Below, piece after piece: positions 4,784 to 19,759 of a DNA stretch of 64,000 nt. The position numbers and the translations under genes are program-made. The DNA is from a virus. Its lineage: Duplodnaviria > Caudoviricetes. Positions within the stretch are counted from its first letter, which is position 1; each line of letters opens with the position of its first letter. The stretch is taken from the IMG/VR virus record IMGVR_UViG_3300021400_000034, positions 160,001-224,000 of that record. One strand, 5' to 3'. Below the pieces are notes generated by a model. That model searched no databases and had not been told where the DNA came from. It was given only the letters and a program-made list of their open reading frames with translations.

Positions 4784-5680
4784 ATGTTCCAAGGTGCAGA
4801 CAATATCAGGGGCCACAAAGAGAAAGTGGAGATGACGCCAGAGCAAGTCGAGGAGTACGCGAAGTGCCAGAACGACATATTCCACTTCGCTAAGTACTTC
4901 TACATCCTGACGCCGAAAGGCTCTAAGCCTATCCCTCTGCGTGAGTACCAGATCCGCGAGATCAAGACGCTGTGCGCTAAAGTCGAGGGCAAGAACAACC
5001 GAATCATCATGCAGGGTCGTCAGTCGGGAAAGACGACGATTGCGACACTGTATCTGACTTGGAAGGCTCTCTTCGAAGAGGACAAGACGATCGCTATCTT
5101 GGCTAACAAGCTCGCTCAGGCTCTAGAGATCATGGCCCGTATCAGAGACGCCTACATCAGACTCCCTCTATGGCTCCAGCAGGGAATCGATCCTCAGCGC
5201 GGAGGCTGGTCTAAGTCCTGCATAGGTCTCGACAACGGCACTAAGATCTTCGCTGCTGCTTCATCTACGAGCTCTATTCGTGGTAAGTCCGTCAACTACA
5301 TGCTCGTGGACGAGTTCGCTCACTTGGACGACTCGATCGCTGAAGACTTCATCCAGTCAGTCATGCCGGTGCAGACCTCTGACCCGGACGCTGAGCTGAT
5401 CCTCATCTCTACTCCTAATGGAATGAACCACTTCGCCGACATCTGGCAGAATGCTGTCGCTGGCGAGAATTCCTACATTCCGTGCAAAGTCCAGTGGTGG
5501 GAGATCGAAGGAAGAGACGAAGCTTGGAAGGCTAGAGTCATCAGAGACTATGGTGTTAAGCATTTTGCCCAAGAATATGCGTGTTGCGACAAAAATCAGA
5601 AAGTTAAGATAAGAAGAAACGGAATTGAGTCAATAGTTACGTTCGAAGAGCTACATTCTATCCTAGAACATGAGCTATAG
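4784..5680 (+). CDS. gp17: Terminase large subunit, N-terminal ATPase half, fused to split-intein N-fragment
   Basis: LREYQ, GRQSGKTT Walker A, ILANK, SIRG, VDEFAH Walker B, ISTPNGMNHF, FAQEY; nuclease domain absent. Confidence 0.93.
   Translation: MFQGADNIRGHKEKVEMTPEQVEEYAKCQNDIFHFAKYFYILTPKGSKPIPLREYQIREIKTLCAKVEGKNNRIIMQGRQSGKTTIATLYLTWKALFEEDKTIAILANKLAQALEIMARIRDAYIRLPLWLQQGIDPQRGGWSKSCIGLDNGTKIFAAASSTSSIRGKSVNYMLVDEFAHLDDSIAEDFIQSVMPVQTSDPDAELILISTPNGMNHFADIWQNAVAGENSYIPCKVQWWEIEGRDEAWKARVIRDYGVKHFAQEYACCDKNQKVKIRRNGIESIVTFEELHSILEHEL
5582..5677 (+). other. Split intein N-fragment (IntN, 32 aa)
   Basis: CCDKNQKVKIRRNGIESIVTFEELHSILEHEL directly after QEYA, intein block-A like, same site as known TerL split inteins. 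Confidence 0.8.
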
Positions 5681-5786
5681 TCATAAAAATCAGCATAAAA
5701 TCACATAAAAGTCAAATTTTTCTATATTCAAAATTGTAAATATCATATAAAATGGGTATGAACACTTTGAATAAGGAAATAAGACA

Positions 5787-7196
5787 ATGTTAGAGTGCAA
5801 GATATGCGGCAAGGATGACTTCGAAAAGATAACAGCTCTCACAACGCACATTCAGTTTCACCATAAGGAGTACACAGCTCAGAGCTACTATGACGAGTTC
5901 TTGAAGAAACCTGGAGAGGGAATCTGTCATACTTGCGGAGGTCCGACTCCTTTCCGAGGTCTCATCAAAGGATATCAGAAGTACTGCTCCAACAAGTGCG
6001 TATGGCAGGATCCAGAGGTCAAAGCTAAGCGTGCAGAGAGCATATCGAAGCTAACAGAAGATCAAATACGTGAGTGGAGACAGAAGAACATAGAATCTCA
6101 TAAGAACGCTGACGGAAAGTGCATATCATACGAAGAGCTAGAGAAGCGAAAGAAGATCAGCGAAGATTCATTCAAGAAATACTTCGAGAAAGCTGACTGC
6201 GAATTCATCAGCTACGAGCAGACAGAGAAGCAGCCAGTCACCTTCAGATGCAACAAGTGCGGAAACGAAGCGACATACGTCAGATCTCTCGTCGACCGCA
6301 TGGCTCGAAACGAAGACTACGGGATATGTCACTTCTGCAACAACAGAAAGTCTGTCAGCACCCCTGAGCGTGAGCTGAGAAAGTTCTTGACTGACAACTA
6401 TCAAGGAAAGATCCTGCTAAACGACAGAAAGATCCTCGTTGGAAAAGAGCTCGACATAGTCATTCCAGAGGCTAAGCTCGCTATCGAGTACGACGGATTC
6501 TACTGGCACAACGAGAATTCTGTATCAGCCAAATATCACCTAGAGAAGACTGAAGCATGCGAAGCTGCTGGATATAGGCTCATACACATATTCGAAGACG
6601 AGTGGAAGCAGAAGCGTTCGATAGTCGAGAGTAGACTCAGAGGAATTCTCGGCTTGAACGAGAGAGTCTACGCTAGAAAGACTGAATGCCGAGAGGTGAG
6701 CTACGAGGAGAGCAGAGAGTTCCTTGAAGAGAATCACATTCAGGGAAGCTGCATGTCAAAGTGGAGATACGGTCTCTTCTACAATGATCAGCTAGTCGCC
6801 GTGATGACGTTCGGAAAGAGCCGATTCGAAGACGGATTTGAGCTGTTGAGATTCTGCAACAAGTTGAACTTGAATGTCGTAGGAGGCGCTGGAAAGCTGC
6901 TGGCTCGTTTCAGAGCTGATCATCCGGAGATAGAGAAGATAGTAAGCTACGCAGACAGACGCTGGTCTATTGGTGGTCTGTACGAGAAGCTGAGATTCAG
7001 GCTAGTGCAGAAGACAGATCCGTCATACTTCTACATAGTGAACCATCAGAGAAAGTCGAGACTTCAGTTCCAGAAGCACAAGCTCGTCGCCGAAGGCGCT
7101 GATCCCTCTCTGTCTGAGCACGAGATAATGAAGCAGAAGAAGTGTCCACGCATATACGACTGCGGGACACTGAAGTACGAGTTGAGTAGAAGCTAA
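5787..7196 (+). CDS. Free-standing homing endonuclease (Zn fingers + Vsr/DUF559-like nuclease + Hef-like C-terminal domain)
   Basis: CKIC..H...H finger, several CxxC, ELDIVIPEAKLAIEYDGFYWH, LIHIFEDEW, SYADRRWS, RIYDCG. Confidence 0.85.
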   Translation: MLECKICGKDDFEKITALTTHIQFHHKEYTAQSYYDEFLKKPGEGICHTCGGPTPFRGLIKGYQKYCSNKCVWQDPEVKAKRAESISKLTEDQIREWRQKNIESHKNADGKCISYEELEKRKKISEDSFKKYFEKADCEFISYEQTEKQPVTFRCNKCGNEATYVRSLVDRMARNEDYGICHFCNNRKSVSTPERELRKFLTDNYQGKILLNDRKILVGKELDIVIPEAKLAIEYDGFYWHNENSVSAKYHLEKTEACEAAGYRLIHIFEDEWKQKRSIVESRLRGILGLNERVYARKTECREVSYEESREFLEENHIQGSCMSKWRYGLFYNDQLVAVMTFGKSRFEDGFELLRFCNKLNLNVVGGAGKLLARFRADHPEIEKIVSYADRRWSIGGLYEKLRFRLVQKTDPSYFYIVNHQRKSRLQFQKHKLVAEGADPSLSEHEIMKQKKCPRIYDCGTLKYELSRS

Positions 7197-7295
7197 AGCC
7201 TTGATGGGCACCAGTTGGTCAAGATCAGAAGAGACGGAGTGGAGTGCGTAGTCTCGATGGAGGAATTGGCTAGCATGCTTGAGCACCAGCTCTAG
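7197..7295 (+). pseudogene. Displaced second copy of the split-intein N-fragment
   Basis: Translates SLDGHQLVKIRRDGVECVVSMEELASMLEHQL*, 18/32 identical and ungapped versus 5582-5677; no start codon or RBS at its 5' end. Confidence 0.85.
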
Positions 7296-7607
7296 TTAGT
7301 TTCCGTGGTCCGCAGAGTCATCAGTGTTTCCGTTGTCACGTTCAGGTTCTGCCGGATCGTAGGTGATCGTGTAGATAGCGATCACAGTGTCGTACCTGCC
7401 GTTGTTGTGTCGGTTGAGTGTGTAAGTCGTGATCTTGATGTCGTGAATGACAGCAGGTTTGTTCTTCTCGATCCACTTGTTCAGCTTCCGGTCGATCTCT
7501 TTCTCCGTCACTGGAATCGCCTTGGGATTGTAGCTACCCGGGTCGTAGTTGTACACGAGGTTTCCGCCGAAGTTGGAAAGTAGGAACTGGAAAGTCTTGA
7601 TTTTCAT
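7296..7607 (-). CDS. Hypothetical early protein
   Basis: AAGGACC leader and own early promoter. Confidence 0.75.
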   Translation of the reverse strand: MKIKTFQFLLSNFGGNLVYNYDPGSYNPKAIPVTEKEIDRKLNKWIEKNKPAVIHDIKITTYTLNRHNNGRYDTVIAIYTITYDPAEPERDNGNTDDSADHGN

Positions 7608-7641
7608 GTTGTTGGTCCTTGTTGATTGTTTTTACGTAGTA

Positions 7642-7674
7642 AATATAAGAAAATCTGAGAGAAATCTAAACCCC
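7642..7674 (-). promoter_or_regulatory. Early promoter
   Basis: GGGGTTTAGA-N17-TATATT. Confidence 0.75.
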
Positions 7675-7680
7675 TAAAAT

Positions 7681-8130
7681 TCATTTAATGAGAAATTTCG
7701 ACTTTCGATCTTTCTTGCTCTTCCAAGTCTCTACATCCCATTCGAAGATGTCTGAGTTGACGAAGTTATGCTTTACGATATCTCTGACATCTTCGTCCGT
7801 GAAGTTCTTCATGAACTTGATGATGCGCTGTTGAGCGTATCTGTGAGTCGGCGGATCTAGCTCTACGCCGTAAGTGTTCTTGAGCGCAGTGATTGGATCT
7901 TGTCCGTGCTCTACGATCCTGCGGTACAGCATAGCGATCACGATGTTGCCAGCACCCATCGTCGGATCTAGCATAGTCTTTGACGGATCGTTCCAGTTAG
8001 CGATAGGCCACTTGTCCATCATCTTAGCGATCGTGTCGTATGGAGTCCATACCTGGCCGAGCTTCTGACGCTCCTTCTTGTCAGCGTGCTCATAGTGATT
8101 GAAGTCATTGTCGTAATCGTATATGCTCAT
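7681..8130 (-). CDS. Amino-DNA methyltransferase, SAM-binding half
   Basis: GQVWTP (motif X), LDPTMGAGN (motif I), YGVELD; no NPPY. Confidence 0.8.
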   Translation of the reverse strand: MSIYDYDNDFNHYEHADKKERQKLGQVWTPYDTIAKMMDKWPIANWNDPSKTMLDPTMGAGNIVIAMLYRRIVEHGQDPITALKNTYGVELDPPTHRYAQQRIIKFMKNFTDEDVRDIVKHNFVNSDIFEWDVETWKSKKDRKSKFLIK

Positions 8131-19695: not shown

Positions 19696-19726
19696 GGTTT
19701 AGATTTCTCTGGTATTTTCTTATATT
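19696..19726 (+). promoter_or_regulatory. Early promoter
   Basis: GGTTTAGA-TTTCTC-...-TATATT, 17-nt spacer. Confidence 0.75.
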
Positions 19727-19759
19727 TACTATGTAAGAAACAATAACAAGGAGCTACTC

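Follow-up and report, generated by a model that had tools for sequence, protein, structure and literature searches.

The 64,000-nucleotide (nt) window analyzed here (bases 160001 to 224000 of the 243,336-bp phage record IMGVR_UViG_3300021400_000034, which has direct terminal repeats) carries the N-terminal half of a terminase large subunit (TerL) gene that ends in a short N-terminal intein fragment (IntN), followed by a free-standing homing endonuclease gene and a second, stranded IntN. On the basis of comparisons with related loci, we consider it likely that an endonuclease cassette entered the gene at the first codon of the intein fragment (Cys1), brought a replacement IntN of its own, and displaced the resident IntN downstream, where it remains as a relic. 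The anatomy of the locus, the position of the junction, the presence or absence of the endonuclease in close relatives, the identity of the native copy, and the repeated occurrence of the arrangement can be read directly from the sequences. The host genome of the element is that of a large gut phage, and the window also contains T4-like replication and recombination genes (i.e., those for topoisomerase II, UvsX, and a DnaB-type helicase). The locus is composed as follows (GC3, G+C content at third codon positions; ORF, open reading frame):

4784 to 5581, plus strand: N-extein (ATPase half) of TerL, ending in ...FAQEYA; assigned by Pfam Terminase_6N and PHROG terminase large subunit.
5549 to 5581, plus strand: last 11 extein codons, A/T-ending, read as a co-conversion tract of this genome from GC3 and the codons of relatives.
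5582 to 5680, plus strand: cassette IntN (IntN1), 32 codons and a TAG stop, fused in frame to the extein and presumed to be the working N-fragment; assigned by GC3 and identity to loci L009 and L041.
5681 to 5786, plus strand: AT-rich spacer (106 nt, 22% GC) of the cassette, located upstream of the endonuclease gene; shared with endonuclease-plus alleles.
5787 to 7196, plus strand: free-standing homing endonuclease, 469 amino acids, TAA stop; assigned by PHROG 3339, DUF559, and Vsr.
7197 to 7295, plus strand: stranded native IntN (IntN2, the relic), 32 codons and a TAG stop; assigned by GC3 and nearest relatives.
7296 to 7607, minus strand: convergent ORF of 103 amino acids, whose stop abuts that of the relic.

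The ORF of the N-terminal terminase half (TerL-N) spans positions 4784 to 5680 and matches Terminase_6N over profile positions 1 to 198 of 215 (E = 2.2e-20). Cys1 (tgt, 5582 to 5584) lies directly 3' of the N-extein, and the last 32 codons (5582 to 5677) constitute IntN1, followed by the TAG stop (5678 to 5680). The relic begins with AGC (SLDGHQ), lacks a start codon, and lies in the same frame directly 3' of the endonuclease TAA. The two copies are identical at 18 of 32 residues without gaps, as the original prediction had stated, and the tblastn E values (1.9e-8 against the loci and 9.4e-8 against the complete genome of 243 kb, in which only these two copies occur) indicate that the likeness is not due to chance. 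Their longest run of identical bases is 7, and nearly every synonymous site differs. The codon contrast described in that prediction was recovered as well: GC3 is 0.34 in IntN1 and 0.27 in the preceding 11 extein codons, compared with 0.72 in the relic and 0.69 in the body of TerL-N.

We compared the locus with 26 related TerL-N loci, 22 of which have a readable gene end; all 22 carry a short IntN (about 30 to 33 amino acids) followed by a stop. The endonuclease is present in some of the 26 loci and missing from others, and three endonuclease-plus/minus pairs (i.e., L041 and L004, L009 and L006, and L011 and L004) have exteins that are 94 to 96% identical at the nt level. An endonuclease followed by a relic occurs in the window, L011, L010/L048, L041, and L053, and the relic always starts at IntN codon 1; the predicted insertion at the Cys1 codon is thus borne out by the junctions of five assemblies. 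The first relic codon is TGC in L010, TGT in L041 and L053, and AGC in the window and L011. The AGC of the window, noted earlier as one base from a Cys codon, appears to derive from TGC, as relatives have TGC or TGT at this position. The endonuclease/relic junctions are of several types (...AGC TAA|AGC, TAA G|TGC, TGA|TGT, and TAG CC|TGT), which differ between endonuclease lineages, and the sequence after the relic exists in four different versions among five of the relic-bearing contigs (L041 and L053 share one). In L009, the endonuclease is kept (92% identical) and the relic has been removed by deletion. The spacer is homologous in the window, L009, L041, and partly L011 and L010, and it is missing from the endonuclease-free alleles. 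The original prediction had anticipated that alleles lacking the endonuclease would carry QEYA contiguous with a relic-type IntN, and exactly this arrangement (CTDGHQLVKIRRNG or CCDGEQLVKIRRNG) was found in endonuclease-free L008/L052 and L004/L005/L042.

Codon usage, nearest relatives, and flanking sequences agree on which IntN copy is native. The relics have GC3 values of 0.56 to 0.75, similar to the fused IntNs of endonuclease-free L004 and L008 (0.59 to 0.62), while fused copies beside an endonuclease have values of 0.28 to 0.44. At the nt level, the stranded copies are 74 to 93% identical to the endonuclease-free fused IntNs (L004 and L008), and the cassette copies are only 56 to 65% identical to them, as expected if the replacement IntN was carried in with the endonuclease and the resident one was pushed downstream. 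The IntN1 of the window is 85 to 94% identical to the fused IntNs of endonuclease-plus L009 and L041, and its relic is closest to the L011 relic (86%) and to the fused IntN of endonuclease-free L008 (77%). Between L041 and endonuclease-free L004, the exteins are 95.9% identical (99% in the last 114 nt) and the L041 relic is 93% identical to the L004 IntN, but the fused IntNs are 58% identical, so that similarity breaks exactly at Cys1; this pair appears close to a before-and-after comparison. The L010 relic stop is followed by the uvsX upstream region, as is the fused stop in endonuclease-free L006, and in the window the stop of the convergent ORF, abutting that of the relic, marks the native end of the TerL-N gene. 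The opposite polarity, in which an A/T-ending native IntN1 was joined by an endonuclease with a passenger IntN2 acquired in a previous host, would find a parallel in distant endonuclease-plus clades (L014-16, L021-24, L027/L031, and L032), where the endonuclease lies simply 3' of the IntN stop, with no relic in any frame within about 260 nt past the stop, and where the empty counterpart of the L014 site is seen in L019. The partly IntN1-like IntN of endonuclease-free L003 would also suit it. We nevertheless rejected this polarity as very improbable, since the codon usage of the gene body is matched by IntN2 and not by IntN1, the nearest endonuclease-free relative of L041 has the relic type fused up to the break at Cys1, and the native downstream flank runs on from the relic stop rather than from the IntN1 stop.

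Most of the differences among the relics are synonymous: the ratio of nonsynonymous to synonymous substitution rates (dN/dS) among them is 0.04 to 0.13 at synonymous divergences (dS) of 0.7 to 1.8, where neutral decay would give a ratio of about 1. Such values do not support neutral decay since a single ancient event and would be expected if each relic had been a working IntN until recently. It is thus improbable that the composite arose once and was inherited vertically with a decaying pseudogene, even though the junction falls at the same codon in five of five assemblies and the motif RRDG is common to the relics of the window, L011, and L010 (every fused allele has RRNG). Relics also track the host background and not the endonuclease lineage: L041 and L053 have relics that are 97% identical and downstream flanks that are 90% identical over 519 nt, with endonuclease genes only 70% identical, whereas the endonuclease genes of the window and L053 are 84% alike and their relics 76%. 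The presence or absence of the endonuclease among alleles that are 94 to 96% identical likewise argues against single origin. These patterns, together with junction types that differ by endonuclease lineage, fit repeated homing, which is the simplest account of them; by eye, the L041 relic contains no mosaic of donor 5' and recipient 3' sequence, its differences from L004 being evenly scattered. Low dN/dS and a frame that is intact in all five relics could instead mean that the stranded IntN is a working product, e.g., one that binds the C-terminal intein fragment (IntC) as a free peptide or as an extension made by read-through from the endonuclease, and in the window, L011, and L041 it is indeed in frame with the endonuclease across one stop. 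We judge this slightly less probable still than a single origin, because the head of the relic has neither a start codon nor a ribosome-binding site, the window and L011 no longer have Cys1, L053 has lost codon 2 by deletion, the relic frame is offset from that of the endonuclease in L010 and L053, and L009 retains the endonuclease with its relic wholly lost. That the locus is an assembly chimera of two strains, a possible refutation raised in the original prediction, has a negligible probability. Contigs of the likely source run do break inside the endonuclease gene (at 6666 to 6698), but both junctions lie well within contigs, five independent assemblies agree, and positions 5300 to 7700 are covered, with 34 differences, by one contig of 8,018 nt from a different sample; a contig from a different study covers 5787 to 7297 (i.e., the endonuclease and relic). 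In the likely source run, short 60-mers reach up to 4 times the flank depth at 6637 to 6727, which suggests that related endonuclease variants are present in the same sample.

The other half of the terminase is encoded far from TerL-N. The sole Terminase_6C match in the genome lies at G000:C1:35539-36006, 129 kb away, within the ORF at G000:C1:35053-36132 (L001:1015-2094), and each half is present in one copy. This ORF opens with a 116-amino-acid IntC, which contains a block B motif (SDGH) and ends in ...HHN|CEF (i.e., HN followed by Cys+1), and continues into the nuclease domain. The locus thus has the features of an atypical split intein: Cys1 and a stop on the N-fragment, block B and HN|Cys on the C-fragment, and halves that are separate genes for one protein. 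The location of Terminase_6N/IntN and IntC/Terminase_6C in separate genes points to a trans-split TerL, the parts of which are predicted to be joined by protein trans-splicing via an atypical split intein with a short IntN and a long IntC. A Pfam search with IntC alone found no family, and the whole C-half matched Intein_splicing far below the cut-off (E = 0.038); the best solved match of IntC was the engineered atypical intein CatC (6DSL_B; E = 0.014). A structural model of IntN1 with IntC reached an ipSAE interface score of 0.82, compared with 0.01 for the best of three controls, a result that may reflect likeness to the solved CatN/CatC complex (6DSL). Of 78 solved complexes, 51 attained the same mark, as did 2 of 108 mismatched pairs; contact agreement among runs was at least 82%, and the predicted local distance difference test (pLDDT) score of the partner was at least 75. 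IntC is conserved and nearly identical between related genomes G001 (endonuclease-plus) and G002 (endonuclease-minus), the fused IntNs of which differ, and this suggests that an imported IntN needs no matched partner. According to hit coordinates, the terminase halves also lie far from each other in these relatives (at a distance of about 125 kb in G001 and some 100 kb in G002), so that their wide separation is conserved and is not a rearrangement peculiar to the genome of the window.

We propose that the endonuclease gene travels with the IntN-coding segment located between itself and the extein. The enzyme would most likely cut the endonuclease-free allele where the extein meets Cys1 or no more than a few bases away, and repair would copy the donor extein, donor IntN, spacer, and endonuclease gene in this order. 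The recipient IntN, which begins at the break, would stay downstream without an extein, a start codon, or a function, and the TerL gene would remain intact because the imported IntN would work with the resident IntC, as the conservation of IntC and the structural model suggest. Owing to the divergence between IntN1 and the relic, the new junction would escape recutting, and the repeats would not recombine to excise the endonuclease. We infer the cut site, the immunity, the splicing activity, and the repair pathway in this scheme. The earlier claim of a recoded 3' end is upheld for the A/T-ending IntN of the cassette, but it does not extend to the 11 recoded extein codons, which are specific to this genome: L009, L011, and L041 have host-like extein codons up to Cys1, and L010 has another variant. 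The recoded tract of the window therefore reflects co-conversion and does not belong to the constant portion of the cassette; the identity of the window to all relatives falls in the last 114-nt extein bin.

Several observations weigh against the scheme as proposed. The endonuclease gene is host-like in composition (GC3 of 0.60), while IntN1 and the spacer are AT rich, and a single foreign block is thus too simple a description. Since the endonuclease gene is host-like, the A/T-ending codons of IntN1 cannot be read simply as the mark of a foreign donor, and the recoding may stem from selection to avoid recutting or recombination between the repeats, and not from the composition of the donor. 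Among the junction columns from -45 to +60, only the third base of Cys1 separates five endonuclease-plus from six endonuclease-minus alleles (T versus C), which is too little to name an immunity target, and single substitutions have little effect on the related enzyme I-Bth0305I (PMC3239194). The IntNs of endonuclease-free L003 and L006/L007 are partly of the cassette type, consistent with loss of the endonuclease or with a source lineage. The L011 relic resembles L008 (84%), but the L011 extein resembles L004 (94%), so that the relic does not always track its extein. Judging from these partly cassette-like IntNs and from the L011 relic, recombination in the region is evidently frequent. Finally, the first formation of the composite requires one illegitimate join.

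More tentatively, and with slightly more doubt than confidence, we suggest that the stranded IntN is a built-in right-hand homology arm of the element and not mere debris. The left end of the cassette would find the extein, and at the right end the recipient IntN would anneal to the donor-derived copy of the relic; the body of the relic would thus be renewed from each recipient, and a few junction bases would travel with the endonuclease. Such a role would explain why the junction is exact despite differing downstream sequences among the contigs, and, if it holds, every phage with this split terminase would be open to homing of the cassette, irrespective of the downstream gene.

The endonuclease gene is present in a single copy in the genome, and its product matches the homing endonuclease family PHROG 3339 over its full length (E = 3.3e-116). 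The protein consists of N-terminal Cys/His clusters, a Vsr/DUF559-like core, and a Mom-like C-terminal region (residues about 300 to 440). The core (residues about 187 to 285) matches Pfam DUF559 (21.4 bits; cut-off, 20.6) and, below the cut-off, Vsr (E = 4.9e-4), and a putative catalytic motif was read in it by eye (ELD, IEYDG-YWH, and FEDEW). The match to the nuclease domain of I-Bth0305I (3R3P) is weak (E = 0.085). On the basis of these features, we classify the protein as a putative free-standing, Vsr-like (EDxHD-type) homing endonuclease. Its C-terminal third (window positions 6690 to 7110) resembles Mom (PF25680, E = 2.2e-5, below the cut-off; PHROG 1384, E = 9.8e-7), and likeness to this DNA-modification family makes it an odd companion for a Vsr-like nuclease core; the region may serve as a DNA-binding or recognition module. 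In L010 (2141 to 3547; also in L048), the endonuclease gene has an internal stop that divides it into pieces of 195 and 269 amino acids, and the adjacent relic keeps its Cys1 (TGC), i.e., a decaying endonuclease lies alongside a well-preserved relic. In L032 (1161 to 2971), from a distant phage, a TerL-N with its own short IntN is overlapped by the gene of a 307-amino-acid endonuclease, which has an N-terminal zinc-finger region in common with the endonuclease of the window. The endonuclease lineage appears to specialize on the split terminase site.

The surroundings of the cassette are variable. The interval 5681 to 7680 and the same interval in L003 to L011 are hypervariable, with different small ORFs in each relative, which identifies the stretch between TerL-N and the next gene as an exchange hotspot adjoining the endonuclease site; the next conserved gene beyond it is a minus-strand ORF of 149 amino acids or uvsX. 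The 103-amino-acid convergent ORF has no Pfam or PHROG match, does not lie next to TerL-N in relatives, and has no relatives among the loci. One sigma-70-like match occurs in the spacer at 5700 to 5728, which by itself does not indicate a function, and no terminator-like site was found in 5400 to 7800. A 34-nt element occurs at 7639 to 7672 (plus strand) and 19696 to 19729 (minus strand) with 3 mismatches (0 expected by chance), and further copies exist at other sites of the genome and in contigs from other runs. A minus-strand sigma-70-like match (7670 to 7642) overlaps the element, which is probably a reused promoter region.

Free-standing endonucleases beside essential genes are familiar from phages, e.g., the seg and mob genes of T4 and mobE in nrdA of Aeromonas phage Aeh1, and in their intronless homing the empty allele is cleaved and flanking markers are co-converted. 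Unlike the element described here, those systems leave no displaced duplicate of the target gene end. The split intein itself resembles AceL-TerL, GOS-TerL, and the consensus intein Cat (6DSL), which we take to be linked to TerL inteins, in its short N-fragment, long C-fragment, and terminase host; the similarity of IntC to the atypical split inteins is weak, as judged by comparison with CatC only. Split inteins with a short IntN are applied in protein labeling and semisynthesis, and it is of practical interest that several natural, diverged 32-amino-acid IntN variants apparently serve one IntC.

A close phage precedent is the fractured gene of Dassa et al. 2009 (PMC2677866), i.e., a gene with a split intein and a free-standing homing endonuclease of a Vsr-like family, reported from loci including a terminase of the Global Ocean Sampling (GOS) data; the EDxHD/Vsr-like family was first noticed in such genes. 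The GOS terminase locus and the present one share a gp17-like terminase, an intein broken at an unusual position, after motif N1 (leaving a C-part of 122 amino acids there and 116 here), and a Vsr-like endonuclease gene directly 3' of the N-part. In the GOS case, however, a single locus holds IntN, the endonuclease, and IntC in this order (i.e., host-N/IntN, endonuclease, and IntC/host-C), whereas here the endonuclease is followed by the relic and the convergent ORF, with IntC and the C-extein 129 kb away. The locus therefore works like a fractured gene with a different layout. The second, stranded IntN 3' of the endonuclease is a further difference; the text of Dassa et al. 2009 contains neither "remnant" nor "pseudogene" and uses "duplicat" twice, on other matters (PMC2677866). 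In a literature search that left most subscription journals outside its scope, we found no description of a displaced or remnant intein fragment beside a phage endonuclease or of this strategy in phages. I-Bth0305I, the EDxHD prototype described by Taylor et al. 2011 (PMC3239194; PDB 3R3P), is likewise phage borne, has a Vsr-like core, and cuts immediately beside its own insertion site, in keeping with a cut at the first codon of the relic. It differs in being intron encoded in recA and in having a C-terminal nuclease domain, while the core of the present enzyme is central and is followed by the Mom-like region.

The logic of the arrangement is the same as in fungal mitochondria, where mobile endonuclease ORFs bring a replacement 3' end for the gene they enter, as in Allomyces atp6 and in Glomus atp6, atp9, cox2, and nad3 (PMC3630166). 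Beaudet et al. 2013 (PMC3630166) describe cases in which the resident gene acquires an in-frame C-terminal segment of foreign origin, with the endonuclease ORF behind it; the native C terminus is displaced downstream, and the native copy resembles that of relatives without the ORF. The same features were found here: the inserted gene end is in frame, the endonuclease comes next, the native end lies displaced downstream, and it is the displaced copy rather than the inserted one that matches the ORF-free relatives. In both systems, the two copies have diverged strongly in DNA sequence (63.5% identity in the mitochondrial case and 55 to 61% here). The elements of fungal mitochondria encode enzymes of the LAGLIDADG or GIY-YIG type and replace the end of a mature protein, whereas the present element has a Vsr-like enzyme in a phage and replaces a 32-amino-acid intein fragment that needs a partner encoded far away. 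The parts of the system (i.e., fractured genes and mitochondrial 3'-end replacement) are thus known, and their combination appears to be new, with comparative sequence evidence that is unusually clean. The relic constitutes a natural footprint that marks, to the exact codon, the entry point of a free-standing endonuclease in an essential phage gene, so that the cut site is directly testable. The element illustrates a way for a selfish gene to spread among phages with differing neighbor genes, and it extends the mitochondrial strategy of 3'-end replacement to phages and split inteins.

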